Below, in pieces: positions 24,653 through 58,340 of a stretch of DNA of 64,000 nt. Source of the DNA: an uncultured Actinomycetes bacterium (GTDB lineage Bacteria; Actinomycetota; Thermoleophilia; Gaiellales; JAICJC01); contig CAVTSO010000013.1 in NCBI GenBank assembly GCA_963737445.1, positions 24,756 to 88,755 of the forward strand. The letters are read 5' to 3'. The stretch's first letter is position 1. Each line of letters starts with the position of its first letter. The notes under the pieces are model-generated. The model was not told the DNA's origin, made no database searches, and saw only the letters and a list, made by a program, of their open reading frames with translations. Made by a program: the position numbers and the translations under genes.

Positions 24653-26098
24653 ATGTTCAGCCTTGACACCGGCCGCGACGTGCTCACTCCCGACCAGCTC
24701 GACCAGGTGCACGAGCGGGCGATGACGGTGCTTGAGGAGATCGGCACGGACGTGCGCCACCCGGCGGCGCTCGAGATGCTGGCCGGGCTCGGCCAGAAGA
24801 TCGACGGCGAGCGTGTCCACTGGGATCGCGAGTTCGTGATGGAGATGCTGGCCCAGGCGCCGCATGCGTTCACGCTGCGGGGTCGCAACCCCGAGCGGGC
24901 GGTGCGGCTGGGCGACTCGAAGCCGGTGCTGACGCCGGTGGGCGGCTCGCCCTTCTGCTCCGACCTCGAGCGCGGACGCCGGGACGGCACGTACGCCGAC
25001 CACGTCGAGCTGATCAAGATGGCGCAGGCCGCCGACCTGATCACCTGCAACCAGAGCGGCACCGTCGAGGCCGGCGATCTCGATGAGAACAGCCGCCACA
25101 TGGACATGGACTACTCGGTGCTGCGGTACTCCGACAAGCCGCACGTCTGTTACGGCACCTCCGGGCCGAAGGCGCGGGACGCCGTCGCCCTGGCGGCGAT
25201 CGCGTGCGGCGGTCGCGAGGCGATCGAGCAGACGCCGGCGCTGATGGGGATCGTCAATCCCAACAGCCCGCTGGTCTGGGACTTCCTGATGGTGGATGCG
25301 TTGTCGGAATGGGCATCGGCAGGACAGCCCGTGGTGATCACGCCGTTCCTGCTGGCCGGGGCGACAGCGCCGATCACGATCGCCTCCGGGCTGGTGCTGA
25401 AGGTGGCGGAGGCGTTGTCTGGCGTGGCACTGGTGCAGGCGATCCGGCCCGGTACGCCCGCCCTGTTCGGATCGTTCTTCACCGCCGTGGACATGCGCAC
25501 CGGCGGTCCCGCCTTCGGCACGCCTGAGTCGGTGCTGGGGACGCTGGCCGGGGGCCAGCTGGCACGGCGGTACGGCCTGCCCTACCGGGGCGGCGGCGGC
25601 CTCTGCTCGTCGAACTCGCTGGACATGGCGTCGGCGGCGGAGACGGCCATGACGCTGTGGGCGACGATGCTGTCCGGCTCGCACCTGGTGATGCACGCCG
25701 CCGGCTGGCTCGAGGGCGGCCTGACGGCGTCGTACGAGAAGTTCGCGATCGACCTCGAGATGCTGCGGATGTTCGCGATGATCGACGAGGGCATCGACAC
25801 CAGCGAGGAGCGGTTCGCGATCGACGCGATGCGGGAGGAAGGGCCGGGCGGGATGTTCCTGGCCGCCGACCACACGCTCGCGCACTTCCGGGAGTGGATG
25901 TTCATGAGCCCGCTGTTCCGCTCGCAGGCCTACGTGACCTGGCAGAAGCAGGGCTCGGCCACCACCGCCACGCTGGCCACCGCCGAGTGGAAGAAGCTGC
26001 TCGAGAGCTACGTGGATCCCGGCATCGACCCGGCCGTCGACGAGGAGCTGCAGGAGTACATGCAGCGGCGCAGGGCCGAGATTGAGGCGGCCCTCTGA
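24653..26098 (+). CDS. MttB-superfamily methyltransferase, non-pyrrolysine type (paralog 1; glycine betaine/quaternary amine:corrinoid methyltransferase-like)
   Basis: Full-length 481-aa MttB-like sequence with no in-frame stop (...NPNSPLVWDFLMVDAL...GQPVVITPFLLAGATAPIT...FGTPES...). Confidence 0.85.
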   Translation: MFSLDTGRDVLTPDQLDQVHERAMTVLEEIGTDVRHPAALEMLAGLGQKIDGERVHWDREFVMEMLAQAPHAFTLRGRNPERAVRLGDSKPVLTPVGGSPFCSDLERGRRDGTYADHVELIKMAQAADLITCNQSGTVEAGDLDENSRHMDMDYSVLRYSDKPHVCYGTSGPKARDAVALAAIACGGREAIEQTPALMGIVNPNSPLVWDFLMVDALSEWASAGQPVVITPFLLAGATAPITIASGLVLKVAEALSGVALVQAIRPGTPALFGSFFTAVDMRTGGPAFGTPESVLGTLAGGQLARRYGLPYRGGGGLCSSNSLDMASAAETAMTLWATMLSGSHLVMHAAGWLEGGLTASYEKFAIDLEMLRMFAMIDEGIDTSEERFAIDAMREEGPGGMFLAADHTLAHFREWMFMSPLFRSQAYVTWQKQGSATTATLATAEWKKLLESYVDPGIDPAVDEELQEYMQRRRAEIEAAL

Positions 26099-29572: not shown

Positions 29573-30465
29573 TGGGACAGATCGCGACACTGCTGGGAGA
29601 CACCCGGCCGGCGCTCAGCGACGGCGCCATCGGCACCATGCTGCAGGCGGCCGGTCTCATGCCCGGCGCCTCGCCCGAGATCTGGAACGTCGAGCGCGCC
29701 GATGCCATGCGCGTGATCCACACCGCCTACGCCGATGCCGGGGCGCGTCTGCTCACCACGAACACCTTCGGCGGCACCCGCCCCCGCCTCGCCCTGCACG
29801 GCCACGAGGATCGCGTGCACGAGCTGAACGAGGCCGGAGCCCGCATCGCCCGCGACGTGGCCGACGCCTGCGGTGCGCTGGTGCTCGGCAGCATCGGCCC
29901 TACCGGCGACCTGATGGAGCCGCTGGGGCTGCTCGGCCACAACGACGCCGTCGACCTGTTCGCCGAGCAGGCCGGCGGCCTGGCCGCCGGCGGCGCCCAC
30001 ATCCTGCTGTTCGAGACGTTCAGCGATCTGGGCGAGGTGCGGGCCGGCGTCGAGGGTGCGCGCCGTGCCGCACCCGACGTGCCCGTGGCCGTGACCATGA
30101 CCTTCGACCTGAAGGGCCATACGATGATGGGCGTCAGCCCGTCGCAGGCGCTGGCCGAGATATCCGCGCTCGATGTCGAGCTGATCGGCGGGAACTGCGG
30201 CAGCGGGCCCGACGAGATCGAGGCGGTGATGGTGACCATGTCCGCCGAGCGTCCGGACGGCGTGCTGCTGCTCGCCCAGAGCAACGCCGGCCTGCCGCAG
30301 CTGGTCGGCGACGAGTTCCGCTACGGCGGCACGCCCGAGGTGATGGCCGACTACGCCCTGCGCATGCAGGAGCTGGGTGTCGATGTGATCGGCTCATGCT
30401 GCGGCAGCACGCCGTCGCACACGGCAGCGATGCGCGAGGCGCTCGGCCTGCACGTGCAGACCTAG
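29572..30465 (+). CDS. homocysteine S-methyltransferase domain protein (stand-alone MetH N-terminal-like module)
   Basis: DGAIGTMLQ...TNTFGG...ETFSDL...GGNCGSGP...GSCCGSTP. The Zn-binding Cys, Cys-Cys pattern of the Hcy-binding barrel is present. Confidence 0.8.
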   Translation: MGQIATLLGDTRPALSDGAIGTMLQAAGLMPGASPEIWNVERADAMRVIHTAYADAGARLLTTNTFGGTRPRLALHGHEDRVHELNEAGARIARDVADACGALVLGSIGPTGDLMEPLGLLGHNDAVDLFAEQAGGLAAGGAHILLFETFSDLGEVRAGVEGARRAAPDVPVAVTMTFDLKGHTMMGVSPSQALAEISALDVELIGGNCGSGPDEIEAVMVTMSAERPDGVLLLAQSNAGLPQLVGDEFRYGGTPEVMADYALRMQELGVDVIGSCCGSTPSHTAAMREALGLHVQT

Positions 30466-30481
30466 CCTGATCAACCATCTA
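30466..30481. repeat. solo copy of the GATGGTTGATC terminal motif, on the minus strand directly after the ferredoxin stop
   Basis: CCTGATCAACCATCTA matches 13 of 15 positions of the right terminus of the element at 41250-41264. Confidence 0.4.
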
Positions 30482-30667
30482 GCCCTCGATCGTGATCGAC
30501 ATGGTCGGGCACGCGTCCGCGGCCGCCTCCACGTCGTCGCGCAGCGCCTCGTCCACGTCCGCCTGATAGCGCAGTAGCTGCGGCGACACCAGCTGGAACA
30601 CCTCCGGGCACTCGATCATGCACTGCCCGTGGTGTTGGCAGGTCTGCTCGTCGACCACCACCCTCAT
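30479..30667 (-). CDS. small ferredoxin (P450-associated type)
   Basis: 62 aa, MRVVVDEQTCQHHGQCMIECPEVF...ADACP. The ATG overlaps the P450 stop (ATGA). Confidence 0.75.
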   Translation of the reverse strand: MRVVVDEQTCQHHGQCMIECPEVFQLVSPQLLRYQADVDEALRDDVEAAADACPTMSITIEG

Positions 30668-31897: not shown

Positions 31898-33337
31898 TCA
31901 GTCGCCGAGCTCTTTCCGGCGCCGGGTGACGAAGTCGGTAAGCTCCTGGCGCAGCTCCGGGTCGATCGCGGGCGGCTCGTACTGCTCCAGCCGCTCGCGC
32001 CAGATCTCGCCGGCCCGCTCCGTCGCGTCCCGCTCGCCCAGCCGCTTCCAGCGCTCGAAGTTCTCTGTCGACGACAGCAGCGGCCGGTAGAAGCAGTCGC
32101 GGAACCGCTCCAGCGTGTGCGCCGCGCCCAGGAAGTGCCCGCCCGGGCCCACCTCCTCGTGCGCCCCGAATGCGAGCGAGGCCTCGTCCACCTCGAGCGG
32201 GGTGAACTCGACCTTCAGCATCCGCAGCACCTCGATGTCGACGATGAACTTCTCGTAGCACGAGACCAGGCCGGACTCCAGCCAGCCGGCCGAGTGCATG
32301 ACCCAGTTGGTGCCGGCCAGGAAGGTCGGGATCATGGTCATGCAGGCCTCGTAGGCCGACTGCGCGTCCACGGTCTGGCTGGACGTGAAGCCGCCGCCGG
32401 ACCGCCACGGCAGGCCGAAGTGGCGGGCGATCTGGCCGGTGCAGAACAGGCCTGTCGCCGACTCCGGGGTGCCGAAGCTGGGCGACCCCGACTGCATGTC
32501 GGTGTTCGAGAGGAACGACCCGAAGATCACCGGCGCGCCCGGCCGCAGCAGCTGCGCCAGCGCGATCCCCGCCAGCGCCTCGGCCATCTGCTGGACGAGC
32601 GTCGCCGGGATCGTTACCGGCGACATCGCGCCCATCAGCAGGAACGGCGTGATCACGACCGGCTGGCCGGCGCGCACGTACTCGAACATGGCCGCCAGCA
32701 TGCGGTCGTCGTAGCGCAGCGGCGAGTTGACGTTGATCAGCCCGATCACGCCCGGCGTGCGCTCGATCGACTCGCGTCCGCCGAGCAGCATCTCGGTCAT
32801 GCGCACCGAGTCGGCCGCGTTGGGCCCGGAGGTGACGGAGCCCATGTAGGGCTTGTCGGTCAGCGTCTGCAGCGCGAACACCATGTCCAGGTGGCGGGAG
32901 TCGAGCGGCCGGTCGTTGGGCTCGCAGATGGTGCCGCCGGCCGAGTCGAGCTCGTCGAACGACTGGGACAGCATGGTCAGCCGCTCGAAGTCCTGCATCG
33001 TGGCGTCGCGGCGGATGTCGCCCTCGCGCACGAACGGCGGCCCGTAGACCGACGCGAACGCCATGTGATCGCCGCCGATGTGGATGTTGTGCTCGGGGTT
33101 GCGGGCCTGCACGTCGAACTCGTGCGGCGCCTTCGCCACCTGTTCGAGCACGAAGTCGGGGTCGAGGAAGACCTTATCGCCGTCGGTCTTCTGGCCGGCC
33201 TTGGCGAACACCTCGACCGCCTCCGGCAGGATGAACTCGACGCCGATCTCCGAGACGATGCGCCGCCAGCCCCCGTCCAGGGTGGCGATCGCCTGCTCTG
33301 ACAGAATCTCGTAGCGCGGCATCCGGTTGACGAACAT
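31898..33337 (-). CDS. MttB-superfamily methyltransferase, non-pyrrolysine type (paralog 2)
   Basis: Full-length MttB-like sequence (..NVNSPLRYDDRMLAAMFEYVRAGQPVVITPFLLMGAMSPVT..FGTPES..) with no in-frame stop. I chose the ATG at 33337, which follows GGGAGAGGG. Confidence 0.85.
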   Translation of the reverse strand: MFVNRMPRYEILSEQAIATLDGGWRRIVSEIGVEFILPEAVEVFAKAGQKTDGDKVFLDPDFVLEQVAKAPHEFDVQARNPEHNIHIGGDHMAFASVYGPPFVREGDIRRDATMQDFERLTMLSQSFDELDSAGGTICEPNDRPLDSRHLDMVFALQTLTDKPYMGSVTSGPNAADSVRMTEMLLGGRESIERTPGVIGLINVNSPLRYDDRMLAAMFEYVRAGQPVVITPFLLMGAMSPVTIPATLVQQMAEALAGIALAQLLRPGAPVIFGSFLSNTDMQSGSPSFGTPESATGLFCTGQIARHFGLPWRSGGGFTSSQTVDAQSAYEACMTMIPTFLAGTNWVMHSAGWLESGLVSCYEKFIVDIEVLRMLKVEFTPLEVDEASLAFGAHEEVGPGGHFLGAAHTLERFRDCFYRPLLSSTENFERWKRLGERDATERAGEIWRERLEQYEPPAIDPELRQELTDFVTRRRKELGD

Positions 33338-40599: not shown

Positions 40600-41076
40600 A
40601 TGGAACAGGAGACGTCACAAGGGCGCTTCGCCGATGGCCTTGCAGAGCGCGAGCCGCTGGGCCCGCCGCTGATCGGGGCGCTGCTGCGCATGCCGGTCGA
40701 TGCCGTGCGGCGGCAGATGATCGAGCGGCTGCACGAGCACGGCTTCGCTGACATCGATCCGGCCCACCTGATCGTGCTGCGCTATCCCGGCCCGCAGGGT
40801 GAGCGCCCGTCCGATCTGGCCGCGCAGCTGGGCATGAGCAAGCAGGCGCTCAACTACCAGCTGGGGCAGCTCGAGCGGCGCGGCTACCTCGAGCGGCGTC
40901 CCGATCCTGAGGACATGCGTTCCCGGCGGATCGTGCTGACGCGGCGCGGCGTTGCCGCGGCCCACGTGATCCGTGACGCCGTGGCCGAGCTGGAGACCCT
41001 GTGGGAGCGGGAGCTGGGGGAGAAGCGCTACGCGCAGCTGCGCGGCCTGCTGGTCGAGCTGAATCGCGTGATCTAG
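40600..41076 (+). CDS. MarR family transcriptional regulator
   Basis: PSDLAAQLGMSKQALNYQLGQLERRGYLERRPDPEDMRSRRIVLTRRG. Confidence 0.85.
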   Translation: MEQETSQGRFADGLAEREPLGPPLIGALLRMPVDAVRRQMIERLHEHGFADIDPAHLIVLRYPGPQGERPSDLAAQLGMSKQALNYQLGQLERRGYLERRPDPEDMRSRRIVLTRRGVAAAHVIRDAVAELETLWERELGEKRYAQLRGLLVELNRVI

Positions 41077-41078
41077 CT

Positions 41079-41264
41079 GAGATGGTTGATCGGTTGTTCG
41101 CGAGCCTGGCCGCTGCGAACGGCTTGAAGTCGGAGGAGGCTGGGGTAGCTACGGCTGCGAACCGTCGTCTCCGTCCGCGATCTGCGTGATCGCAGATCGC
41201 TCATGACCGGCGCAAGGCGATGCCTTGCGCCTTGGACACCACGGAGATACCGATCAACCATCTC
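41079..41264. mobile_element. MITE-like 186-bp element, copy A: perfect 15-bp terminal inverted repeats and two internal 10-bp-stem hairpins
   Basis: The TIRs are GAGATGGTTGATCGG (41079-41093) and CCGATCAACCATCTC (41250-41264). The hairpins are GCGATCTGCG-tgat-CGCAGATCGC (41177-41200) and GGCGCAAGGC-gat-GCCTTGCGCC (41209-31). It carries no ORF. Confidence 0.6.
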
Positions 41265-43200
41265 GGTCGATCGACTCGGCCAGCAGTGTGGCCACGTCCG
41301 CCACCCGCAGCGTGCTGCCGCTGGTGCGGACGCCGTCGTCGAGCATCACGGTGCAGAACGGGCAGGCCACCGCCAGCGTCCCGGCGCCGGTCTCATCGGC
41401 CTGCCGCACCCGCTCCTCGTTGATGGCGCTGCCGCGCTCCTCCATCCACATGTGCGCGCCGCCGGCGCCGCAGCAGAACGTGCGCTTGCCGCTGCGCTCC
41501 ATCTCGACCGGCGTGCCCACCGCCGCCACCAGCTGCCGCGGATCCGCCGTCACGTCGTTGTGGCGCGCGAGGTAGCAGGAGTCGTGGTAGGTGATCTGGG
41601 TGTCCCCCGCCTTCGGCTCGATCCGGCCGTCGCGGACCAGCTCGGCCAGCAGCTCGGTGTGGTGCATCACCTCGTAGCGGCCGCCGAAGTCCGGGTACTC
41701 GTTGGCCAGCGTGTTGAAGCAGTGCGGGCAGCTGGCCACGATCTTCGTCACCCCTGAGCCGTTCAGCGTCTCGACGTTCTGCTCCGCGAAGGCCTGGAAC
41801 ACGTACTCGTTTCCCATCCGCCGGGCCGGGTCGCCGGTGCACGACTCGCGCGGGCCCAGGATCGCGAAGTCGACCCCGGCCGCCTGCAAGAGCTTTGCCG
41901 TCGACACCGCCGTCTGCCGGGCGCGCTCGTCGAACGAGGCGGCGCAGCCGACCCAGTAGAGCACCTCGGGCGCCGGGTCGCCCGGCTCGAGCACCGTCAC
42001 GCCCAGCCCCTGCGTCCAGTCGCCGCGCTCCTGCTGGGCCTTGCCCCAGGGGTTGGACGATCGCTCGACGTCCCGCAGCATCGGCTCGGCCTCCGCCGGG
42101 AACCGCGCCTCGGCCATCACCAGGTGGCGGCGCAGGTCGACGATGTGGTCGATGTGCTCGATCGAGACCGGGCACTCGTGGACGCAGGCGCCGCACGTGA
42201 CGCAGTCCCAGACCACGTCGTCGGTGACCGCGTTTGGCACCAGCGGCGGCGGATCGGCTCCCTCGGCACCGGAGAGCAGCTTCGGGCCCTGGTCGAGCAG
42301 GTGATCGCGCAGTCCCATGATCAGCAGCTTGGGCGACAGCTCCTTGCCGGTCGCATAGGCCGGGCAGACGTCCTGGCAGCGACCGCACTCGGTGCAGGTT
42401 GCGGTGTCCACCATCTGCTTCCAGGTCATGTCGGTGAGCGTGCCGGAGCCGAGCCGGATCTCGTCCTCCGGCACCTCCGGGTCGTCGAACACGAGCGGCT
42501 CGAGACGGCCGCGTGCGCGCGTTCGCCCGAAGAACACATTGACCACGGCGGTAATGATGTGCAGGTGCTTCGAGTAGGGCAGGTACGCCAGGAAGCTCAG
42601 GATCAGCAGCACGTGCGTCCACACGAACACGCGCTCGAGCACCTTCGTGCCATCGCCGCCGCCGAACAGGTTGGAGAGCGCGTTTGCGACCGGAGACCAC
42701 GACGCCGGCCACTCGTTCAGCCCCAGCGCGATCCGCGTGGCGTGCCACAGGAGCAGGGTGGTGACGATGCCCGCGATCAGGGCCAGGATGAAGTCGGCCT
42801 CGCCCATGTGGCTGCCCTCGAACCGCGCCGGCCGCTGCACCTTGCGGATGAAGAACGCCGCGCACACGCTCAGCAGCACCAGCAGCGCGAACAGGTCGAC
42901 CAGGAACGCGAACCAGCCCTGGTGGCCGAGCCAGGGCAACGTCGCGTCGCGATCGACGGCCGCGATCATCGCCATGATGATGGTCGGGAACAGCACGATG
43001 AATCCCCAGAAGATCAGCGCGTGCATCACCCCCGGGCCCAGCCGCTGCAGCAGCTTGCGCTGGCCGATCGCGACCACCGCCTCCTGGCGCAGGCGCTGCG
43101 GCACATCGTCGAACCTGGGCGCGGGCCTGCCGAGGCGCATGATCCGGACGAGCAGCCGGGCGCGACGGGCGAAGATGCCGCCGGCCACCGCCAGCGCCAC
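41254..43200 (-). CDS. membrane-anchored Fe-S oxidoreductase (EtfD/DgcB-like; heterodisulfide-reductase-related with CCG domains)
   Basis: N-terminal TM helices, two ferredoxin motifs (CTECGRCQDVCP, CVTCGACVHECP) and two CCG-type Cys-rich domains (..WVGCAAS.., ..TFCCGAGG..). The start is uncertain; I took GTG 43200. The tracked ORF's extension to 43500 overlaps etfA. Confidence 0.8.
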   Translation of the reverse strand: MALAVAGGIFARRARLLVRIMRLGRPAPRFDDVPQRLRQEAVVAIGQRKLLQRLGPGVMHALIFWGFIVLFPTIIMAMIAAVDRDATLPWLGHQGWFAFLVDLFALLVLLSVCAAFFIRKVQRPARFEGSHMGEADFILALIAGIVTTLLLWHATRIALGLNEWPASWSPVANALSNLFGGGDGTKVLERVFVWTHVLLILSFLAYLPYSKHLHIITAVVNVFFGRTRARGRLEPLVFDDPEVPEDEIRLGSGTLTDMTWKQMVDTATCTECGRCQDVCPAYATGKELSPKLLIMGLRDHLLDQGPKLLSGAEGADPPPLVPNAVTDDVVWDCVTCGACVHECPVSIEHIDHIVDLRRHLVMAEARFPAEAEPMLRDVERSSNPWGKAQQERGDWTQGLGVTVLEPGDPAPEVLYWVGCAASFDERARQTAVSTAKLLQAAGVDFAILGPRESCTGDPARRMGNEYVFQAFAEQNVETLNGSGVTKIVASCPHCFNTLANEYPDFGGRYEVMHHTELLAELVRDGRIEPKAGDTQITYHDSCYLARHNDVTADPRQLVAAVGTPVEMERSGKRTFCCGAGGAHMWMEERGSAINEERVRQADETGAGTLAVACPFCTVMLDDGVRTSGSTLRVADVATLLAESIDRDG

Positions 43201-43226
43201 CAGCAGCGCGATCAGGGCGACGGGCT

Positions 43227-44195
43227 CTATCCGGCGCCCGCCTTGCGCAGTTCGGCCGTGATCGCCGGGATCACCTCGTGCAGGTCGCCGATCACGGCGT
43301 AGTCGGCGTTGGCGATGATCGGCGCCTCCGGATCGACGTTGACCGCGATGATCCGCTTGGCGCCCTTGCAGCCGGCCATGTGCTGGGTGGCGCCGCTGAT
43401 GCCGCAGGCCAGGTACACCTCCGGCGCGATCTTGGTGCCGGTCTGACCGACCTGGTCGGTGTGCGACCGCCAGCCGGCGATAGTGACGGCCCGCGAGCAC
43501 CCGACGGCTCCGCCCAGCAGCGCCGCCAGCTCCTCGGCCGGTGCGAAGCCCTCCGGAGAGCCGGCGCCGCGCCCGCAGCTGACCACGAACTTGGCGTCCG
43601 CCAGGTTGACCCCGCCCTCGCTGCTCTGCTGCACGGTCTCGACCACCCGCACCACCAGGTCGGCTTCGCCCAGCGACGGCGAGAAGCGCTCGACGGCCGC
43701 CGGCGCACCGCCCACCTCGGCCGCCTCGACCGTGTGCGGCGCCACCGTCAGCAGCTTGACGGGGCCGTGCAGGCGCGCGTCCTCGAGCAGGCTGCCGCCC
43801 CAGCGGATGCGGGTCACGGTCAACGGGTCGCCCGCCTCTGCGGCGATGCAGTTCGCGGCCAGCGGCAGGTCGCCGATCGCCGCCGCGTGCGCCAGCACCT
43901 CGTTTCCGCGCTCGCTGCCGGCGGCCGCCACGGCCGACGGGGACAGCCGCTCGATCAGCTCGCCGATGCAGCGTGCCAATGCCACGGGCGCATGGGTGGC
44001 GAGCACCTCGTGGTCGGCGATGTGCGCGGTCGCCACCCCGTGGGCGCCCAGCGCGGCGGCGGCGTGCTCGGCGCCGGGACCGGCCAGCAGCGCGTGCAGC
44101 GGTGCGCCGCCGGCGATCTCACGGGTCAGTGCGATCGCCTGCAACGAGGCGTCGTCGGGCCGGCCGTCCTGATGCTCGACGTAGACCAGCGTCAT
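43227..44195 (-). CDS. etfA: electron transfer flavoprotein alpha subunit
   Basis: C-terminal FAD-binding signature ..VVSCGRGAG...GCSRAV...DQVGQTGTKIAPEVYLACGISGATQHMAG... The ATG overlaps the etfB stop (ATGA). Confidence 0.9.
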   Translation of the reverse strand: MTLVYVEHQDGRPDDASLQAIALTREIAGGAPLHALLAGPGAEHAAAALGAHGVATAHIADHEVLATHAPVALARCIGELIERLSPSAVAAAGSERGNEVLAHAAAIGDLPLAANCIAAEAGDPLTVTRIRWGGSLLEDARLHGPVKLLTVAPHTVEAAEVGGAPAAVERFSPSLGEADLVVRVVETVQQSSEGGVNLADAKFVVSCGRGAGSPEGFAPAEELAALLGGAVGCSRAVTIAGWRSHTDQVGQTGTKIAPEVYLACGISGATQHMAGCKGAKRIIAVNVDPEAPIIANADYAVIGDLHEVIPAITAELRKAGAG

Positions 44196-50066: not shown

Positions 50067-53051
50067 TCACCCGCGCTCCGTCAGGCCGCGCGTGTGCGCA
50101 TAGCTTGCCGCTTCAGTGCGGTTCGCGCAACCGGTCTTACGCAGAATGCTGCGGATGTGGTTTGCAGCCGTGTGCTCGCTGATGTGCAGCGTGCGGCCGA
50201 TCTCCCTGTTCGACCGGCCCTGCGCGACCAGGCGCAGGATCTCCGCTTCGCGCCCGGACAGGCCGTCGGGCAGCCGCGACACCGCCGGTCCGGCCGGCAG
50301 CAGCCCGCGGATGCGGCCCAGCAGGGCCGGCATACCGATCCGCTCGGCCAGGTCGGACGCCTCCGCCAGCGCGGCCTGCGCGGCCGCGTCGCCGGCCCGG
50401 CCCTGCGCGCCCAGCGTGCGCGCGTACTCGTAGTCGGAGTGCGCCAGCCAGGTGATCGCGCCCATGTCGCGGTTGTAGTCGATCGCGCGCTGCAGGTGCA
50501 GCTCCGCCAGCTCCAGCTCACCGTAGGCTGCCGCCAGGGTGCCCAGGTATCGCTCGGACGATCCGTAGCAGGCCACGCCGTGCCCGATCATCACGTTCCG
50601 CTCCGCGATCGACAGCAGCTCCCGGTAGACCTGCTCCGACAGATCGGCGTCGCCCACGGCGACGCAGGCGTCGGCGATGTAGGTCAGCGACCCCACCCAC
50701 AGCGCGTGCCGGTAGACATCGAGGCCGTCGCTCTGGATCAGCGCCAGCTGGGCGCGCGCCTCATCCAGCATCCCCAGCTCGGCCGTGAGCGCCGCCAACC
50801 CGGGGCGCCACGACCCGCCGCGCCGGTCGCCGCCGGCGAGCACCCGCACCACCGGCGCCAGCTCGGCCAGCCGTCCCTGCTCGCGGCGGATGCTGAACAT
50901 CTGCACGCCGTAGACCCCGGATGCGTCGCGCCCCGTCAGCAGCCGGCTCCACTCGCGTGAGCGCTCGGCTGCCTCCTCCGCCTCGGCCAGACGTCCTTCG
51001 CAGAGCGCGATCGCCGAGCGGTAGTGCTCGGCCACGTGGATGATGAACGGCTGGTGCATGCGCCGCGAGATCTCCAGCACCTCGGCCAGCTCGCGGCCGG
51101 CGGTGCGCAGGTCGCCCTTGCCGATCAGCGCCGTGATCCGCCACTCGGACGCCTCCGCCTGCGACTCGATGTCGCCCAGCTCCTCGGCGATGGTGCGGGC
51201 CTCGGCCAGCATCTCCAGCACCTCGTCGTGGGTGTTTGAGCCGCGTGCCCAGTAGCTGCGCATCAGCACCACGGACAGGCCGGGCCGGTAGTCCATGCGC
51301 CGCGCGATTGCGATCGCCTCGTCCCGCAGCTCGGCGCTGCGCTCGGACTCCCCCACGAGCGCGCGCGCCCGGGCCAACCCTGACAGCAGCAGCACGCGCA
51401 TCGTTGAGTCGCCGAGATCGAGCGCCGCCAGCGCCTCCTCCAGCAGCTCGATCGCGCCCTCGTCGAGCATCGCCACCCGCCAGCAGGCGGTCTCCACCCC
51501 GATCGCGGCGCGCGCCAGGAGATCCGGGTTGTGGAGCCGCCTCGCCGTCTCCGCGGCCGCCTGGAACGCCTCCAGCGAGTCGCCGGACTGGCCGGCCCGG
51601 TAATGGGCCGCCCCCAGCTCCAGCTCGATCTCGGCGTGCGCGGTCTCGTTGTCGACGCCCAGCTCGAGCGCAGTCTGCAGCGGGCCGACCGCCTCGCCGA
51701 ACGCCAGCGCGGCGTTGGCGGCGTCGGCCGCCCGCAGGTTGTACTCGACCGCCCGCTGGGGACCGTCGATGGGCGCGGCGGCGGCGAAGTGGTGGGCGAG
51801 GTCGGCCAGTCCGCGCGCCGTGTCGGCGGCGCCGGACGCCTCCATCGACTCCGCCACCTGCAGGTGCAGCTGCGCCCGCCGCAGGCCCGCCAGCCGGTCG
51901 TACAGGGCGCGGCGCACGAGCTCGTGGGAGAACCGGTAGCGCAGCTGCCTGGCCGGGATCTCCTCGATCATGCCGCTGCGCAGCGACTGCTCCAGCGCGG
52001 CCGACAGCGTGGCGTCGGTGAACCCGCCGCCGCGCAGCACGGACAGGTCGAACTCGGGCCCGGTCACCGCGGCCAGCTCCAGCACCAGTGCCGTCTCCGG
52101 CTGCAGCCGCGCCAGCCGCTGGTTGACCACCTCGCGCACGCTCTCGGGAGTGCCCAGGGCGCTCAGCGGCCGGGTCAGGATGGCGACGCCGTCCACGATC
52201 TCGAGCGCTCCCGTCTCCACCAGCTCCCGCCACAGCTCCGTGACCAGGAACACGTTGCCCTGGGTGAGGCTGGTGATGGCGCCCGCCAGCTCCGGTAGCG
52301 CAGGGCCCAGCGGCGCTCCGGCCGCGCGCTCGACGAACTCCGAGACCTGCTCGCCCGTGAGCGCGCCCACGCGCACCCGTACCACCCCCTCCGAGCGACG
52401 CATGTCGATCAGCGCCTCCGACAGCTCGGCCGGCACATCCGCCTCGGTGTCGCGGAACGTGGCGACCAGCAGCATGCGCGCCTCGGTGGCTCCGCCCGCG
52501 AGGTGCCGCAGCAGCAGCAGCGTCGGGGTGTCCGCCCAGTGCCCGTCCTCGAACACCAGCAGCAGCGGTCGCCGGCGACCGGCCGCCACCAGCAGGTCGC
52601 TGACGGCCGCGTTCAGGCGATGCCGCTCGGTGTCCTGGTCGGCCACGACCGGCTCCGGCAGGTCGCCGACGTGGCTGCGCAGGTCCGGCAGCAGCCGGGT
52701 CAGCTCGCCCCCGGCCGGCCCCAGGTCGTCGCGCAGCTCGGCCGGATCGCTGGCCCGCACCAGCTGGTCGAGCGCCTCCACGAACGGCCGGTAGGGGGTG
52801 CGCACCACGGCGTCGCAGGCGCCGTACAGCACCAGCGCGCCGTCCTTCGCAGCCTGGTGGGCGATCTCGCGCACCAGCCGGCTTTTGCCCGACCCGGGCT
52901 CGCCGCCGACCAGGGCGATGCGGCGGCCCTCGCTCTGCGCGCGCGGCAGCAGCGACCGCAGCGTGGCCATCTCCCTGGGACGGTCCACGAACGGGAAGGA
53001 CGGCTGCAGACGCAGCGGCCCGGGCAGCGCGGAGTGGGCGATGACGTCCAT
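50067..53051 (-). CDS. large ATP-binding LuxR-family regulator (LAL/MalT-like: AAA ATPase plus TPR-like repeats plus C-terminal LuxR HTH)
   Basis: Walker A GEPGSGKS. The C-terminal sequence LSGREAEILRLVAQGRSNREIGRTLHISEHTAANHIRSILRK. Confidence 0.85.
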   Translation of the reverse strand: MDVIAHSALPGPLRLQPSFPFVDRPREMATLRSLLPRAQSEGRRIALVGGEPGSGKSRLVREIAHQAAKDGALVLYGACDAVVRTPYRPFVEALDQLVRASDPAELRDDLGPAGGELTRLLPDLRSHVGDLPEPVVADQDTERHRLNAAVSDLLVAAGRRRPLLLVFEDGHWADTPTLLLLRHLAGGATEARMLLVATFRDTEADVPAELSEALIDMRRSEGVVRVRVGALTGEQVSEFVERAAGAPLGPALPELAGAITSLTQGNVFLVTELWRELVETGALEIVDGVAILTRPLSALGTPESVREVVNQRLARLQPETALVLELAAVTGPEFDLSVLRGGGFTDATLSAALEQSLRSGMIEEIPARQLRYRFSHELVRRALYDRLAGLRRAQLHLQVAESMEASGAADTARGLADLAHHFAAAAPIDGPQRAVEYNLRAADAANAALAFGEAVGPLQTALELGVDNETAHAEIELELGAAHYRAGQSGDSLEAFQAAAETARRLHNPDLLARAAIGVETACWRVAMLDEGAIELLEEALAALDLGDSTMRVLLLSGLARARALVGESERSAELRDEAIAIARRMDYRPGLSVVLMRSYWARGSNTHDEVLEMLAEARTIAEELGDIESQAEASEWRITALIGKGDLRTAGRELAEVLEISRRMHQPFIIHVAEHYRSAIALCEGRLAEAEEAAERSREWSRLLTGRDASGVYGVQMFSIRREQGRLAELAPVVRVLAGGDRRGGSWRPGLAALTAELGMLDEARAQLALIQSDGLDVYRHALWVGSLTYIADACVAVGDADLSEQVYRELLSIAERNVMIGHGVACYGSSERYLGTLAAAYGELELAELHLQRAIDYNRDMGAITWLAHSDYEYARTLGAQGRAGDAAAQAALAEASDLAERIGMPALLGRIRGLLPAGPAVSRLPDGLSGREAEILRLVAQGRSNREIGRTLHISEHTAANHIRSILRKTGCANRTEAASYAHTRGLTERG

Positions 53052-53182
53052 AGTCAGGATTGATCATTGCACCCGGCGATCACAGGCGCACGAAGTGGAT
53101 CAATCCCGGTCATGCGATCCCCTACCGCCTTCGATACCGTCAGCCTCCATAGGCACAAGCGATACAGACCATCGGAGGTCAC

Positions 53183-54577
53183 ATGAGCACGATCGCAACA
53201 CTCGCCGCGGAAGCTCGCTCGGCTCTTGCCGGCAGCTTCAACGGCACCCTGACGGGACCGGACGACGCCGGATACGACGAGGCGCGCTCGGTCTACAACG
53301 CGATGATCGACCGGCGGCCGGCCCTGGTGGCCCGCTGCACCTCGGCCGCCGATGTGGCGGCGGTGATCGGCTTCGCCCGCTCGCAGAATGCGCTGATCGC
53401 AGTCCGCGGCGGCGGCCACAACGGCGGCGGCCTGGGCGTCGTCGATGACGGCGTCGTCATCGACCTGGCCGGGATCAACAGCATCGACGTCGATGCCGCC
53501 GCCCGCACGGTGCGGGTCGGCGGCGGCTGCGTCTGGAAGGATGTCGACGCCGCCACGCACGAGGTGGGCGGCACCGTTCCCTGCGGCATCATCGGCACCA
53601 CCGGCGTCGGCGGGCTGACCCTGGGCGGCGGGATCGGGCACATCGCCCGCTCCGGCGGCCTGACGGTCGACAACCTGCTCGAGGCCGAGGTCGTTCTGGC
53701 AGACGGTTCGATCGTGCGCGCATCGGCCGACGAGAACCCGGAGCTGTTCTGGGCGCTCCGCGGCGGCGGCGGCAACTTCGGCGTGGTCACGGCGTTCACG
53801 TTCAAGATGCAGCCGGTGAGCATGGTCGTGGCCGGTCCCACCTTCTGGTCGCTGGACGACGCGGCTGAGGTGATGCGGGCCTACCGGGAGTTCCTCCCGG
53901 CGGCTCCGCGCGAGCTGAACGGCTGGTTCGCGTTCGTGACCGTGCCGCCCGTTCCGGTGTTCCCCGAGGAGCTGCACGGCCGCAAGATGGCGGCCATCGT
54001 GTGGTGCCACACGGGCAGCGAGGAGGAGGCCGCTGCGGCGATGGCGCCGATGCTGGAGGCGGTCGAGCCGGTGCTGCACGCGGCCGGCCCGATGCCGTTC
54101 CCGGTGCTGAACGGGTTCTTCGACGCGCTCTACCCGAAGGGCGACCAGTGGTACTGGAGGGCCGACTTCGTGCGCGAGCTGCCTGACGCCGCCATCGAGC
54201 AGCACGTCAGGTTCGCGAACGAGATGCGCCCCGGCCAGTCGACCATGCATATGTACCCGATCGATGGGGCCGTGCATGACGTCGGCGCGGGTGACACCGC
54301 GTTCAGCTACCGCGACGTGACCTGGGCGCAGGTGATCGTGGGCGTCGACCCCGACCCGGCCAACGCCGAGGCGATCAAGCAGTGGACGATCGACTACTGG
54401 GATGCCACGCACCCCTACTCGGCCGGCGGCGCCTACGTCAACTTCATGATGGACGAAGGCCAGGAGCGGGTGAAGGCCACGTACCGGGACAACTACGACC
54501 GGCTGGCCCGGGCCAAGGCGCAGTACGACCCGCACAACGTCTTCCGCGTCAACCAGAACATCAAGCCCGCAAGCTGA
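53183..54577 (+). CDS. FAD-linked oxidase (FAD_binding_4 plus BBE domain)
   Basis: ..AVRGGGHN..GGGCVW..LTLGGGIGH.. and the C-terminal ..YVNFM...YDPHNVFRVNQNI BBE tail. Confidence 0.85.
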   Translation: MSTIATLAAEARSALAGSFNGTLTGPDDAGYDEARSVYNAMIDRRPALVARCTSAADVAAVIGFARSQNALIAVRGGGHNGGGLGVVDDGVVIDLAGINSIDVDAAARTVRVGGGCVWKDVDAATHEVGGTVPCGIIGTTGVGGLTLGGGIGHIARSGGLTVDNLLEAEVVLADGSIVRASADENPELFWALRGGGGNFGVVTAFTFKMQPVSMVVAGPTFWSLDDAAEVMRAYREFLPAAPRELNGWFAFVTVPPVPVFPEELHGRKMAAIVWCHTGSEEEAAAAMAPMLEAVEPVLHAAGPMPFPVLNGFFDALYPKGDQWYWRADFVRELPDAAIEQHVRFANEMRPGQSTMHMYPIDGAVHDVGAGDTAFSYRDVTWAQVIVGVDPDPANAEAIKQWTIDYWDATHPYSAGGAYVNFMMDEGQERVKATYRDNYDRLARAKAQYDPHNVFRVNQNIKPAS

Positions 54578-54645
54578 GGCAGGCCGTGGCCGGGGGGTGC
54601 GTCGGGCACCCCCCGGCCCTTGGCCATGCGGCGTAGGCTTCCATC

Positions 54646-55716
54646 ATGGATCCCCAGCCAGCCGGCATCAGCCGCGAGGAGCTGCAGCTCGCCGCCCGCA
54701 ACCACGGCATGCTGCTGGAGGCGCTGCGGCACGAGATCACACCGGTGGGACTGCACTACCTGCTGGTGCACTACGACATCCCGGCGGTGGGCGAGGAGTG
54801 GAGGCTGCGGGTGGACGGCCGCGTGCGTCGTCCCCTGGAGCTGGATCTGGACGCCATCCGCGCCCTCCCGTCCGTGACCCTGCCGGTCACGATGGAGTGC
54901 GCCGGCAACGGCCGCGCGACGATGGAGCCGCACGTGACCAGCCAGCCGTGGATCCTGGAGGCGGTGGGCACCGGTCAGTGGACGGGTACGCCGCTGGCGC
55001 CGCTGCTGGAGCAGGCCGCCCTGCTGGACGACGCCGTCGAGATCGTCTTCGAGGGCCTCGATCGCGGCCTGGAGGGCGGCGATGAGCAGACCTACGGGCG
55101 CAGCCTCACGATCGAGCAGGCGGTCAACGACGGCGCGATCCTGGCCTACGAGCTGAACGGCGCCCCATTGCCGTCGCAGCACGGCTACCCGCTGCGGCTG
55201 TTGGTGCCCGGCTGGTACGGCATGACCAACGTCAAGTGGCTGTCATCGATCAGGGCCGTCAGCGAGCCGTTCGCGGGCTACCAGCAGGCGCAGTCCTACC
55301 GCTGGCGCCGGGAAGAGCACGAGGCCGGAAGGCCGGTCACGCGCATGATGCCGCGGGCGCTGATGGCGCCGCCCGGCATCCCCGACTTCATGAGCCGCGA
55401 GCGCACCGTTTCGGCCGCAGAGCCGGTTTCGGTGCAGGGGCGGGCCTGGTCAGGTTGGGGGCCGATCGAGCTGGTGGAGTTCTCGGCCGACGGAGGCGAG
55501 AGCTGGCGGGCGGCGGAACTGGGCGACCAGGGCAGCCCGCACGTCTGGCGGGGCTGGTCGGTCAGCTGGCACCCCGCTGGGGCGGGTCGCTACGAGCTCT
55601 GCTGCCGCGCCACCGACGCGACCGGCGCCACCCAGCCGCTGCACCCGGAGTGGAACCTGGGCGGCTACGAGAACAACGCCGTCCAGCGCGTCCCGGTCAC
55701 TGTTAAGGATGGTTGA
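54646..55716 (+). CDS. sulfite-oxidase-family molybdopterin oxidoreductase (Oxidored_molyb plus Moco dimerisation domain)
   Basis: Moco-Cys motif TMECAGNGR and ..GYPLRLLVPGWYGMTNVKWL.. The stop TGA lies inside the repeat terminus GATGGTTGAT. Confidence 0.85.
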   Translation: MDPQPAGISREELQLAARNHGMLLEALRHEITPVGLHYLLVHYDIPAVGEEWRLRVDGRVRRPLELDLDAIRALPSVTLPVTMECAGNGRATMEPHVTSQPWILEAVGTGQWTGTPLAPLLEQAALLDDAVEIVFEGLDRGLEGGDEQTYGRSLTIEQAVNDGAILAYELNGAPLPSQHGYPLRLLVPGWYGMTNVKWLSSIRAVSEPFAGYQQAQSYRWRREEHEAGRPVTRMMPRALMAPPGIPDFMSRERTVSAAEPVSVQGRAWSGWGPIELVEFSADGGESWRAAELGDQGSPHVWRGWSVSWHPAGAGRYELCCRATDATGATQPLHPEWNLGGYENNAVQRVPVTVKDG

Positions 55717-55933
55717 TTCCACGAGCTACGCGCGGCGCGCCGTCCGCGATCTGCGTCATCGCAGATCGCTCCCGACCGGCGCAAGCCATGGCTTGCGCCC
55801 AGGGGTCTGGGACACGCTGGACGCCACGATCGTCCTTGGCCAGGACATGCCCAGCCTGCCCTGCGGACGCTCTCGACGTCCAGCGCGGCCCATCCTGCGC
55901 CCCGCATCCACGCATCCCGTGGAACCAACCATC
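55706..55933. mobile_element. MITE-like element, copy B (~228 bp): imperfect termini and the same two hairpins as copy A
   Basis: The termini are GGATGGTTGATTCC (55707-55720) and GGAACCAACCATC (55921-55933). The hairpins are GCGATCTGCG-tcat-CGCAGATCGC (55746-69) and GGCGCAAGCC-at-GGCTTGCGCC (55778-99). The shared core is CCGTCCGCGATCTGCGT.ATCGCAGATCGCTC..GACCGGCGCAAG. Confidence 0.55.
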
Positions 55934-55938
55934 GATAG

Positions 55939-57126
55939 TCAGATCGCCTCGCCGGTATCCCGGTCGAAGAAGTGCAACCGGCGGTTGTCCACCTGCAGGG
56001 TGATCGGCTGTCCCCGCTGAGCTGACGTGCGGGGGTTCAGCCGCGCCACGAACGAGGTCTGCGCGCCGCCGTCGACCTCGGGCAACAGCGCGGCGTCTGC
56101 GGCCAGGTCGATCGTGTCGTCGGTGATCACCGGCGGTGCGTCCACGCCGAAGTGCACGTAGACCTCCGAGCCCATCGCCTCACGAATGTCGACGACCACC
56201 CGGATGTCCGACCCTTCCAGGCGGTCGTTGATGAACTGCGGATCCTCGATGTCTTCCGGCCGGATGCCCAGCACCACCTTGCTGCCGTCCCGGGCGGCAA
56301 GCGCCGGCCGCTGCTGGAACGTCTCCTCGGGCACGCGCAGGCTGATGCCTGCGAACTCGACCGCGCCGCCGCTCTCGGAGCGGCGCACCACAGCGTCGAC
56401 CATATTCATGGCCGGCGAGCCGATGAACCCGGCCACGAACAGGTTGGCGGGACGGTCGTACATGTCCTGGGGGGCGTCCACCTGCTGCAGGACGCCGCGG
56501 TTCATCACGGCCACCCTGTCGCCCATCGTCATCGCCTCGGTCTGGTCGTGGGTGACGTAGATCATGGTCGTGCCCAGGTCGCGCTGGATCCGCGAGATCT
56601 CGGTGCGCATCTGGACGCGCAGCTTGGCATCCAGGTTCGACAGCGGCTCGTCCATCAGGAACGCCTGCGGTTCGCGCACGATCGCGCGGCCCATCGCCAC
56701 CCGCTGCCGCTGGCCCCCCGAGAGAGCCCGTGGCTTCTTCTTGAGCTGATCCTCGAGCCCGAGCGTCCTCGCCGTCTCGCGCACGCGGCGGTCGATCTCC
56801 TTGCGCGGCACCTTGCGCAGCTTCAGGCCGAAGGCCATGTTGTCGAAGCAGGTCATGTGCGGGTAGAGGGCGTAGTTCTGGAACACCATCGCCAGGTCGC
56901 GGTTTTTGGCCTCCACGTCGTTGATGACGGCGTCGCCGAGGCGGATGCTGCCGCCGGTGATCTCCTCCAGCCCGGCCACCATCCGCAGCAGCGTGGTCTT
57001 GCCGCAGCCGGACGGGCCGACCAGCACCATCAGCGTGCCGTCCTCGATCGTGAGGTCGACGGAGCGCACGGCCTCCGTGCCGTCCTCGTAGACCTTGGTC
57101 ACCTCGTCGAAGCCGATCTGCGCCAT
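55939..57126 (-). CDS. orphan ABC transporter ATP-binding protein of the MalK/UgpC/MsiK sugar-importer type
   Basis: Walker A GPSGCGKTT, signature LSGGQRQR, Walker B FLMDEPLS and a C-terminal TOBE-like domain. No permease or binding-protein gene is adjacent. Confidence 0.9.
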   Translation of the reverse strand: MAQIGFDEVTKVYEDGTEAVRSVDLTIEDGTLMVLVGPSGCGKTTLLRMVAGLEEITGGSIRLGDAVINDVEAKNRDLAMVFQNYALYPHMTCFDNMAFGLKLRKVPRKEIDRRVRETARTLGLEDQLKKKPRALSGGQRQRVAMGRAIVREPQAFLMDEPLSNLDAKLRVQMRTEISRIQRDLGTTMIYVTHDQTEAMTMGDRVAVMNRGVLQQVDAPQDMYDRPANLFVAGFIGSPAMNMVDAVVRRSESGGAVEFAGISLRVPEETFQQRPALAARDGSKVVLGIRPEDIEDPQFINDRLEGSDIRVVVDIREAMGSEVYVHFGVDAPPVITDDTIDLAADAALLPEVDGGAQTSFVARLNPRTSAQRGQPITLQVDNRRLHFFDRDTGEAI

Positions 57127-57173
57127 TGCGCCCCCATAATACGGTCGCACCGAGTCCACGAGGAGGAGCAGCG

Positions 57174-58340
57174 ATGAGCGCACAGCCGGCCGCCGACGTG
57201 GCCGTTGTCGGATTGGGCGGCCTGGGCAGCGCCGCGGCATGCTGGGCGGCGCGGATGGGCGCGCGGGTGGTCGGCCTCGAGCAGTTCCCGCTCGGCCACG
57301 ATCGGGGCGGGTCGCACGACCATTCGCGGTTGATCCGGCTGGCCTACCACCACCCGGACTACGTGCGGCTGGCGGCCACCGCGTACGACGTGTGGGACGA
57401 GGTCGAGCGCGCCGCCGGCGAGCAGCTGGTGCACCTGACGGGAGGCATCGACATATTCGGCTCGGACGCGCCGCTGGGCCGCGACGTATACGCGGCCGGC
57501 ATGATCGAGGGCGGCGCCGAGGTGGAGCTGCTGACCGGTGCGGACGTGTCGGCCCGCTGGCCGCAGCTGGCGCCGCCCGGCGACGTGCCTGCTCTTGCCC
57601 ACGCGCGGGCCGGGTTCGTCGCCAGCGAGCGCGCCACCGCCGCCCACCAGCGGATGGCGCGGGCGGCCGGCGCGGAGCTGCTGGACGGGTGTGCCGTCAC
57701 CGCCGTGCGACCCTCCGGCCGCGACCTGCTGGTGGAGGCGGACGGGCGCACGATTCGCTGCCGGTCGGTGATTCTCTCGGCGGGAGCGTGGCTGAACGAG
57801 CTCCTGGAGCCGCTGGGCGCGAGCCTGCCGCTCACGATCAGCCAGGAGCAGATCTCCTACCTGGCCGCCGACGACCTCGATCGCTTCCGTCCCGCCCGGT
57901 TCCCGGTCTGGATCTGGCACGGCGCCCGCACGTACTACGGGTTCCCGGCATTCGGTGAGCGGGCGGTCAAGGCGGCGGAGGACCAGGGCGGTGCCGAGGT
58001 GACCGCGCGCACGCGCAGCTTCGACCCCGACCCGGACGCGACCGAGCGCCTGCACCGCTTCGTCTCGGGATTGATTCCCGGGCTGGGGCCGCCGGTGCTG
58101 ACCAAGACCTGCCTGTACACGATGACCCCCGACCGCGACTTCGTGATCTCGGCGCTGCCGCAGCACCCCGGCATCGTGGCGGCGGTGGCCGACGGCCACG
58201 GCTTCAAGTTCGCCTCGCTGCTGGGCAGGATGCTGGGCGAGATCGCCCTGGGCCGCACTCCCTCGCCGGACCTGGAGCGGTTCCGTGCCGACCGGCCGGC
58301 GCTGGCGCCCGGCCGCGACCCCAGTCCCGCCCGCGTGTAG
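57174..58340 (+). CDS. monomeric sarcosine oxidase / N-methyltryptophan oxidase-like FAD oxidoreductase
   Basis: VAVVGLGGLGSAAA dinucleotide fold. TKTCLYTMTPDRDF resembles the covalent-FAD Cys region of the MSOX/SolA family. The ATG follows GAGGAGGAG. Confidence 0.8.
   Translation: MSAQPAADVAVVGLGGLGSAAACWAARMGARVVGLEQFPLGHDRGGSHDHSRLIRLAYHHPDYVRLAATAYDVWDEVERAAGEQLVHLTGGIDIFGSDAPLGRDVYAAGMIEGGAEVELLTGADVSARWPQLAPPGDVPALAHARAGFVASERATAAHQRMARAAGAELLDGCAVTAVRPSGRDLLVEADGRTIRCRSVILSAGAWLNELLEPLGASLPLTISQEQISYLAADDLDRFRPARFPVWIWHGARTYYGFPAFGERAVKAAEDQGGAEVTARTRSFDPDPDATERLHRFVSGLIPGLGPPVLTKTCLYTMTPDRDFVISALPQHPGIVAAVADGHGFKFASLLGRMLGEIALGRTPSPDLERFRADRPALAPGRDPSPARV

Follow-up and report, generated by a model that had tools for sequence, protein, structure and literature searches.

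The 64,000-nucleotide stretch of contig CAVTSO010000013.1 analysed here (hereafter the window), from an uncultured Actinomycetes bacterium, contains at 41079–41264 a structured segment wedged between two convergent genes, one for a MarR-type regulator and the other for an Fe-S oxidoreductase. The locus raises the question of whether this segment, designated copy A below, belongs to its neighbours or came from elsewhere and, in the latter case, by what route. We found that it is most likely one copy of a family of small, non-coding and non-autonomous mobile elements. The initial annotation had regarded it as a mobile repeat resembling either MITEs (miniature transposable elements with inverted repeats) or repetitive extragenic palindromes (REPs) and BIMEs. 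The presence of further copies and of empty sites bears out its mobility, but neither a target-site duplication nor an autonomous partner was found, and for these two reasons copy A is MITE-like and not a demonstrated MITE.

The position of copy A (site A) is empty in six relatives (L076, L077, L078, L110, L111 and L112), in which the Fe-S and MarR genes abut one another and no trace of the element is seen; a check of orthologous loci proposed in the initial annotation thus found the sequence missing entirely, here and in one relative at the second site described below. The flanks of these alleles are 92–96% identical to the window at the locus (88% across the MarR gene of L078), and the window itself is the only filled allele. 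A metagenome scan anchored in the Fe-S gene returned three loci, all empty and none closer than the other relatives, and no contigs encoding the MarR protein of the window are on record. Copy A is a lineage-specific insertion, acquired at the 3' end of the Fe-S gene by the lineage of the window; its exact target is reconstructed, not observed.

A second, related copy had been reported at 55706–55933, and was found at the coordinates given for copy B in Table 1. It has the termini in common with copy A, apart from a mismatch in the right terminus, and the two copies are 93% identical over a core of 46+ nt (41171–41216 vs 55740–55785); its left tip gives GAT GGT TGA to a molybdopterin-oxidoreductase-like gene (54646–55716). 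Site B is empty in the locus L026, which is 94–95% identical to window positions 50820–58814 and has overlapping convergent stop codons there (GCTAGATAGCC). L026 in turn bears a class II element, 91% identical, at the place corresponding to 54629/54634, where the window is empty, 1.1 kb from site B. Three more pairs of filled and empty sites were recognised (L032 vs L017/L024; L017 vs L032; L024/L059 vs L017/L032), so that dispersed copies, at 71 loci, are accompanied by insertion polymorphism at five sites. As a separate observation on the last of these sites, the metagenome-assembled genome (MAG) DATNEO carries the left and right flanks orthologous to L017 on separate contigs (L024 3531–3849 and L059 1312–1543), and the left flank on the second contig is unrelated, which points to an assembly mis-join or to a real rearrangement across the repeat.

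At two orthologous sites with flanks of ~94% identity, the elements differ in their sets of modules and in their loops (L006 5781–6041 vs L046 620–890; L015 465–782 vs L021 1–219). This reflects either repeated insertion at the same spot or in-place replacement by recombination between copies.

To define the family, one genome per bacterial species was scanned for the first of the two hairpins of copy A (hairpin 1), allowing any loop sequence. The scan produced 75 loci. Sixteen MAGs, which carry the label Gaiellales, Thermoleophilia, Solirubrobacterales or 'uncultured Actinomycetes', account for 71 of them, and a single MAG can have as many as ~20; the many further copies sought in the initial annotation do exist in related genomes. 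Four matches in other taxa have no termini and were set aside as chance palindromes. A fifth outside match, L041 (Kofleriaceae MAG, DATAHZ010000804.1), is 99.7% identical over 3.5 kb, element included, to L023 from the Gaiellales MAG DATAHR, and is almost certainly a mis-binned Gaiellales contig. Copies A and B gave no BLAST match in plasmid and phage collections, and viral contigs scanned with class I and class II termini yielded only single unpaired matches, on unrelated contigs of 30–61% G+C. Within everything searched, the family was found only in actinobacteria of the Gaiellales/Thermoleophilia type.

In the scan loci and the window together there are 61–62 complete elements of 119–377 nt, a length within the limit for MITEs (under ~600 bp), all bounded by AGATGRTTGAT ... 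ATCAAYCATCT, and wherever the contig was long enough hairpin 1 sat in a unit delimited by this inverted 11-mer. Conservation is high up to the very tip (terminal A 89%, G 100%) and drops sharply outside it, where there is an excess of C at -2 (57%) and of T at -1 (50%) and CTAG is consequently frequent at the junction. Three subfamilies can be distinguished, which have only the 11-mer and the two-hairpin module in common and differ in their subterminal sequence; within each of them the 11-mer extends to 17–22 nt. Class I is characterised by AGATGRTTGATCGRTATCTC, to which the right end of copy A belongs, class II (copy B) by AGATGRTTGATTCCACG and then GAGCTACGCGG, and class III by the same 17-mer as class II followed by ACSCCGCACGTCTGA. 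The minimal form of class I (119–124 nt) consists of the termini and a segment termed the arm, and in its longer members the stretch between arm and right end also holds two further small hairpins and from one to three copies of the hairpin-1/hairpin-2 module. The modules are sometimes arranged in tandem, at a spacing of 82 or 107 nt. Copies of one subfamily are 88–97% identical, both within and between genomes.

Copy A conforms to this plan, being built of an arm and one hairpin-1/hairpin-2 module. A repeat search recovered both perfect 10-bp-stem hairpins at the positions previously given for them, and an inverted repeat of 16 nt at 41079–41094 / 41249–41264, 100% complementary and with its arms 154 nt apart; the terminal repeats, earlier described as perfect over 15 bp, are therefore exact and one base longer. 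On either side the repeat goes one base beyond the family-wide termini, which gives the 186 nt of 41079–41264. The MarR-type open reading frame (ORF; 40600–41076) stops with TAG at 41074–41076, two bases ahead of the left arm at 41079, and the Fe-S ORF (41254–43500, minus strand) ends within the right arm as ...CGA GAT GGT TGA (C-terminus ...AESIDRDG-stop), both just as the initial annotation had it. Its statement that the element contains no ORF holds in the sense that there is no coding support, but mechanical ORFs of 62 amino acids do span copy A on both strands (41001–41189, plus; 41073–41261, minus). Elsewhere in the family only mechanical Arg-rich ORFs cross the elements. A coding reading based on element length and open frames was dropped: with every copy counted, lengths modulo 3 are distributed 35/10/16, but with each distinct length counted once the distribution is 16/9/10 and not significant, so that no robust triplet bias is left.

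Among 33 distinct modules, compensatory changes affect 7 of the 10 pairs of hairpin 2, and one variant has an entirely different stem sequence in the same place. Hairpin 1 was fixed by the search pattern and therefore gives no information on its own conservation. The stem of the arm is predicted from invariant columns and includes several G-U pairs; it has no covariation support because both of its sides are invariant. Inside this predicted stem lies a hypervariable loop, 26 nt long in copy A (41118–41143) and constant at 26–28 nt in class I, whose sequence is ~50–65% identical even between orthologous copies, compared with ~97% for the stem. The arm loop is thus free to vary, and hairpin 2 is kept by compensatory substitution. 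Folding of copy A gave -106 (plus strand) and -101 kcal/mol (minus strand), with z = -7.3 and -8.1, respectively, against shuffled sequences, and with the termini paired.

The tips themselves bring stop codons. Read inward, a tip supplies T|AG if the flank ends in T, AGA TGA if R is A, and in every case GAT GRT TGA, and these stops cover up to three frames on each strand. For 91 of ~120 element ends there is a flanking ORF of at least 100 codons that ends within -45 to +40 of the tip, and 57 of these 91 ORFs end on or in it (TAG at -1, 19 cases; TGA/TAA at -2, 11; TGA at +4, 7; TGA at +8, 20). Over all flanking genes, roughly one in two has its stop on or in a tip. According to a frame test on third-codon-position G+C (GC3), the gene contexts are convergent in 13 cases, tandem in 16 and divergent in 3. 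In empty alleles the convergent genes lie 1 nt apart or overlap, so any insertion there must hit a gene end, and, as the tips bear stops, the 3' end of the gene that is hit is terminated within one to three codons. The cost to the C-termini in the window is small in extent: RDG-stop instead of GPPG-stop at site A and KDG-stop instead of AR-stop at site B. The survival of elements chiefly at the ends of genes would be due to the near absence of spacer there in these compact genomes and to the stop-bearing tips, which would make such insertions harmless.

No insertion was accompanied by a target-site duplication, as already noted for copy A in the initial annotation and now seen across the family. 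The five recent insertions (flank divergence below ~5%) have no flanking direct repeat and show TA at 2 of 10 junctions. Over 61 elements, no repeat of 1–6 nt rose above the shuffle control at offsets 0 to +3; there were 12 TA pairs (13.7 expected) and 8 CTAG pairs (7.3 expected). A marginal excess appeared for 2-nt matches at offset -1 (9 observed, 3.2 expected) and nowhere else. Excision of exactly AGATGG...CCATCT restores sensible gene ends in three cases, each of which has a chance of about one in three. Without the element, site A reads ...GAC CGC AGC TAG (...AESIDRS-stop) and ends at the conserved CTAG used by the relatives, site B reads ...GTT AAA TAG (...VTVK-stop) and ends at the TAG used by L026, and L032 reads GAG TGA GTG, in which the next start comes directly after the stop. 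The idea that the terminal repeats are two halves of a palindromic target was abandoned, there being no such palindrome in the empty alleles.

What, then, moves the element? An unlinked enzyme may move the elements in trans, recognising their common 11-bp tips. The lack of a duplication, taken with a partial preference for CT|AG at the junctions, suggests a non-DDE route, with HUH/Y1, a serine or DEDD-type recombinase, or cut-and-join with blunt target cleavage as candidates. Since the three subfamilies share the 11-bp tip, leave no duplication and partly prefer CT|AG, an unlinked trans-acting enzyme fits best, and not a classical staggered-cut DDE transposase. The hairpins, for their part, would serve to terminate transcripts that read through the element from either strand, or to protect their 3' ends; this is the weakest step of the proposal, and a role of the element as a bidirectional 3' structure (terminator or mRNA stabiliser), as put forward in the initial annotation, is plausible. 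Joined into one reading, these points would make the family a kind of bacterial mobile repeat not described before, bounded by terminal inverted repeats and integrated without duplication by an unlinked, probably non-DDE enzyme that reads the 11-bp tip only, with a nested hairpin module exchanged among three otherwise unrelated subfamilies, serving as a portable 'stop codons plus double hairpin' cassette that, in very compact genomes, separates overlapping convergent genes and gives them 3' structures. We put this combined reading forward tentatively; as a whole it is possible, if doubtful.

A number of observations weigh against the explanation of copy A as one of a family of mobile elements. 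The search for an enzyme covered the window and ~560 kb of element-bearing loci. It revealed no autonomous element, with termini 0.6–4 kb apart, and the multi-copy proteins among the 381 likely genes of the loci were orthologues only, with no transposase. Copies that are 88–97% identical also give no sign of a very recent burst. As to insertion, the L017 element stands in place of ~20 nt that hold a small palindrome and the stop codons of both genes, and the L026 element goes with five missing bases of the empty allele. The exact target cannot be fixed because the flanks are 4–8% diverged and lie in fast-evolving gene tails; the six empty site A alleles differ from each other precisely at these tails and in the spacer. 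The true boundary could be CTAG, as selection for stop codons explains the outside C (57%) and T (50%) only partly. Regarding a role in RNA, the scan found no intrinsic terminator with a U-tract, the strong hairpins not being followed by a T-run. Mismatches in hairpin 2 have no strand asymmetry (4 of G-U type vs 4 of A-C type, which is uninformative), and tandem contexts have no overall orientation bias (10 in the same direction vs 5 opposite, by hand count). All of the class II copies in tandem context point with transcription (6 of 6), too few to weigh. No sigma-70-like promoter was found in the scan.

Several candidates for a partner were examined and rejected. One pairing of termini in the 0.6–4 kb range was spurious and belonged to two neighbouring small elements. 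Genes of ~160 amino acids between paired elements in L008 and L045, suspected from their size to be RAYT-like, encode a TPR-like protein and a MarR regulator. A 1.17-kb indel (L017 3357–4527 / L024 6146–7313 vs L032 4132–4135), considered as an insertion sequence (IS), is an ordinary gene for a secreted protein of beta-propeller type; this gene of L017/L024 is cleanly absent in L032 between two conserved genes, and is unrelated to the element. Termini were not found in ~90 kb of the related loci L076–L083 and L110–L112.

As for the nature of the mover, we give somewhat less than an even chance to one of another kind than those considered below. Of the latter, a repeat of the REP, REPIN or BIME type, for whose spread a domesticated Y1 (HUH) transposase (RAYT), present in single copy, would use single-stranded hairpins as its substrate, is unlikely; it would account for the missing duplication, the conserved hairpins and the mosaic build. 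REP units (see PMC2817692, PMC3733652) measure 20–40 nt and carry a GTAG or CGTC tag, and what moves or is recognised is the hairpin itself. Our family is comparable in having extragenic palindromic hairpins kept by compensatory change, here without strand bias, in its position at gene ends, in its mosaic composites and tandem hairpin modules, in the lack of a duplication and in the lack of a linked transposase, which is what a single unlinked RAYT would lead one to expect; the arm also has GTAG/CGTC-like tetranucleotides beside a small hairpin. The differences lie in the unit itself, which is 119–377 nt long and delimited by a separate inverted 11-mer, so that the mobile unit is bounded by terminal inverted repeats of 11–22 nt and not by hairpins. 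Hairpin 1 never occurs outside such a unit in Gaiellales loci, the foot of the hairpin stems is not marked by a conserved GTAG head, and palindromes of 20–40 nt with a GTAG/CGTC head, alone or in inverted doublets, do not describe the elements. Moreover, no RAYT gene is flanked by the repeats in the fetched loci, where paired elements enclose the TPR-like and MarR genes.

Integration via a circular intermediate by a site-specific recombinase (serine, IS607-like; DEDD, IS110-like; or tyrosine) is quite unlikely. The joined ends would form a perfect palindrome, ATCAACCATCT|AGATGGTTGAT, with a short core (CT or TA) shared with the target and not duplicated. This accords with the enrichment of CT|AG in spite of the missing duplication, as CT or AG adjoins at least one end in 38 of the 62 elements, and in 49 of 62 if CTG/CAG are allowed (hand count). 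It also accords with the 11-mer being all that the three subfamilies share, and with the different subfamily members held by the same orthologous site in related species (L006/L046, L015/L021), which fits exchange at the termini. Against this, no recombinase gene was found in the window or the ~560 kb of loci, the junctions of copy A, a recent insertion, are not immediately flanked by CT or AG, and the empty alleles contain no conserved target motif. Nor is the hypervariable arm loop a target guide in the manner of a bridge RNA, since its longest match to the flanks of its own element averages 6.16 nt, no more than the 6.13 nt obtained with the flanks of other elements. A blunt-cutting DDE transposase we also consider rather improbable.

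A canonical MITE derived from an IS of the IS630/Tc1-mariner or IS5 type, with the unit GATGG...CCATC and with the flanking T and A as its duplication, is very improbable. CTAG is regenerated at many junctions, where C at -2 and T at -1 are frequent, at least eight elements have CTAG at both ends, and the location of the elements at gene ends would follow from the presence of CTAG at stop codons. However, the terminal A is conserved at 89% and its supposed partner T at only 50%, and left T and right A occur together no more often than in shuffled pairs (12 vs 13.7). TA is present at few junctions of the recent insertions, copy A has neither of the two bases, the empty alleles are not cut at CTAG, and no such transposase was seen in the searched DNA. 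As neither TA nor CTAG is duplicated, including the insertion into TA with duplication of TA that marks IS630/Tc1-mariner elements, both the IS630/Tc1 (TA) and the IS5 (CTAG) readings were rejected. The bacterial MITEs reviewed by Delihas (2007, PMC2229807), such as Correia/NEMIS of Neisseria, ERIC, and RUP of S. pneumoniae, are A+T-rich and have 5'-TA-3' tips and target-site duplications. The Gaiellales family is similar to them in being small and non-coding, with terminal inverted repeats (a perfect 16 nt in copy A, the 11-mer throughout) and many dispersed, mostly intergenic copies at gene ends, in transcripts for which long stable stem-loops, closed where the two ends pair, are predicted, in stop codons in the reading frames, and in insertion polymorphism between close relatives (PMC2229807). 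It differs from them in being G+C-rich, in the lack of a duplication, in having TA/CTAG at only about half of the junctions, and in that no parent IS was found in the ~560 kb of loci or the window.

That the segment is not mobile at all, being a host regulatory or terminator sequence or a member of a small RNA gene family that was duplicated or recombined and lost in relatives, has next to no probability: the structural constraint on the interior and the persistence of some copies at orthologous sites with ~94% identical flanks would suit it, yet six independent empty site A alleles have abutting gene ends without a trace of the element, of two sites 1.1 kb apart one is filled in the window but not in L026 and the other in L026 but not in the window, the gene contexts of dozens of copies are unrelated, and there is no Rfam match. 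In numbers, the whole window and three elements matched no Rfam 15 family for the element, the best element matches reaching 14–18 bits against thresholds of 42–56.

Other known repeats share some of these traits. The BOX elements of Streptococcus pneumoniae are reportedly organised as boxA-boxB(n)-boxC, i.e. with paired conserved terminal modules around variable internal ones. The zero to three hairpin-1/hairpin-2 modules, 82 or 107 nt apart, recall this arrangement, although there is no sequence relation, the phylum is a different one and the Gaiellales module is a pair of G+C-rich perfect hairpins. The MIRUs of Mycobacterium tuberculosis, also intergenic repeats of an actinobacterium with ends overlapping the stop codons of neighbours, are said to be direct tandem repeats inside operons, lacking terminal inverted repeats and equipped with short ORFs for translational coupling; our family differs from this in having inverted termini and no support for a conserved ORF. 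PATEs, which derive from IS200/IS605, lack terminal inverted repeats, are asymmetric in their ends and subterminal hairpins, and insert 3' of a fixed tetra- or pentanucleotide. Like PATEs and ISDra2, the family leaves no target duplication and has internal hairpins, and TTGAT in the tip is identical to the target pentanucleotide of ISDra2. Its ends are nevertheless symmetric inverted repeats, and no fixed flank motif is present at all copies. Literature searches returned nothing on these termini or on repeats of Gaiella. In the way it works, the family resembles the small structured repeats of the bacterial MITE/BOX/BIME group; it is slightly unorthodox, and was not found in Rfam 15, in plasmid and phage collections or in the searchable literature.

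Gaiellales are abundant and almost uncultured actinobacteria of soil, of whose repeat content the searchable literature gives no account. The family is a marker of strain-level variation, with insertions polymorphic between ~95% identical genomes, and through it ordinary genes come to have altered C-termini and stop codons. It also breaks short-read assemblies, as seen from the many copies at contig ends and one probable mis-join. The combination of terminal inverted repeats, absent duplication, stop codons in both tips and a common hairpin module points to a route beyond the usual model of IS-derived MITEs, and the partner enzyme, if found, would offer a tractable new system. If the hairpins act as terminators, mobile DNA would supply 3'-end signals where convergent genes otherwise overlap.

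In the window, the 10-mer GATGGTTGAT (at most one mismatch) occurs six times, against 1.5 expected, a number reached in 0 of 100 shuffles, and the 32-nt core of hairpin 1 is present twice where 0.00 occurrences are expected; a sensitive BLAST search that used every family member detected no copies in the window beyond A and B. One of the six 10-mer matches is a solo terminus of 12 nt (Table 1), which supplies the stop of a 62-amino-acid ferredoxin gene on the minus strand, with the TAG of a homocysteine S-methyltransferase gene on its other side (window 30463–30482). In L080, a 90% identical locus, the stops overlap and the solo terminus is absent. It is probably the remnant of a deleted element. 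At this site the 98% identical contig L079, from a noisy long-read assembly, has an unrelated 216-nt filler and is uninformative.

Table 1. Positions in the window of the two elements, their parts and related sites
Feature	Position	Strand	Remarks
Element, copy A	41080..41263	+	184 nt by the family-wide termini AGATGG...CCATCT; class I termini, one hairpin module
Left terminal inverted repeat of copy A, GAGATGGTTGATCGGT	41079..41094	+	Includes the family-wide 11-mer AGATGGTTGAT
Right terminal inverted repeat of copy A	41249..41264	-	Reads GAT GGT TGA, the last two codons and stop of the Fe-S gene
Class I arm of copy A	41098..41166	+	Near-invariant segments 41098–41117 and 41144–41166, predicted to pair
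Hairpin 1 of copy A, GCGATCTGCG-TGAT-CGCAGATCGC	41177..41200	+	Perfect 10-bp stem, 41177–41186/41191–41200
Hairpin 2 of copy A, GGCGCAAGGC-GAT-GCCTTGCGCC	41209..41231	+	Perfect 10-bp stem, 41209–41218/41222–41231
Element, copy B	55707..55934	+	228 nt; class II termini GGATGGTTGATTCCACG ... CGTGGAACCAACCATCG
Hairpin 1 of copy B	55746..55769	+	Loop TCAT
Hairpin 2 of copy B, GGCGCAAGCC-AT-GGCTTGCGCC	55778..55799	+	Compensatory G-C to C-G change compared with copy A
Solo terminus, GATCAACCATCT	30469..30480	-	Between convergent stops TAG 30463–30465 (+) and TAG 30479–30481 (-)
Empty site (ATGC GGCGT AGGC)	54629..54634	.	L026, a 95% identical MAG locus, has a 221-nt class II element here

Some further observations were made in the window and its relatives. 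In two long-read ENA assemblies, genes seem to run through their stops: the Fe-S gene in L078 (11841–11851; 95% nucleotide identity to the window), with a product of 769 amino acids, and the methyltransferase gene in L079 (7159–7374; 98% protein identity), with a product of 456 amino acids. Both are likely due to indel errors or, in L079, to the 216 nt of unrelated filler at the position of the solo terminus. The only Rfam matches in the window are two divergent tRNA genes at 18691–18763 (minus strand) and 19088–19160 (plus strand). An inverted repeat of 152 nt with 70% complementarity (25620–25771 / 32219–32370) appears to represent two MttB-family (trimethylamine methyltransferase-like) paralogues in opposite orientation. 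Going by Pfam matches in related loci, the region around them encodes corrinoid proteins, RACo activators, a DAO/GCV_T oxidase and ETF subunits, and it looks like an island for the catabolism of methylated amines.

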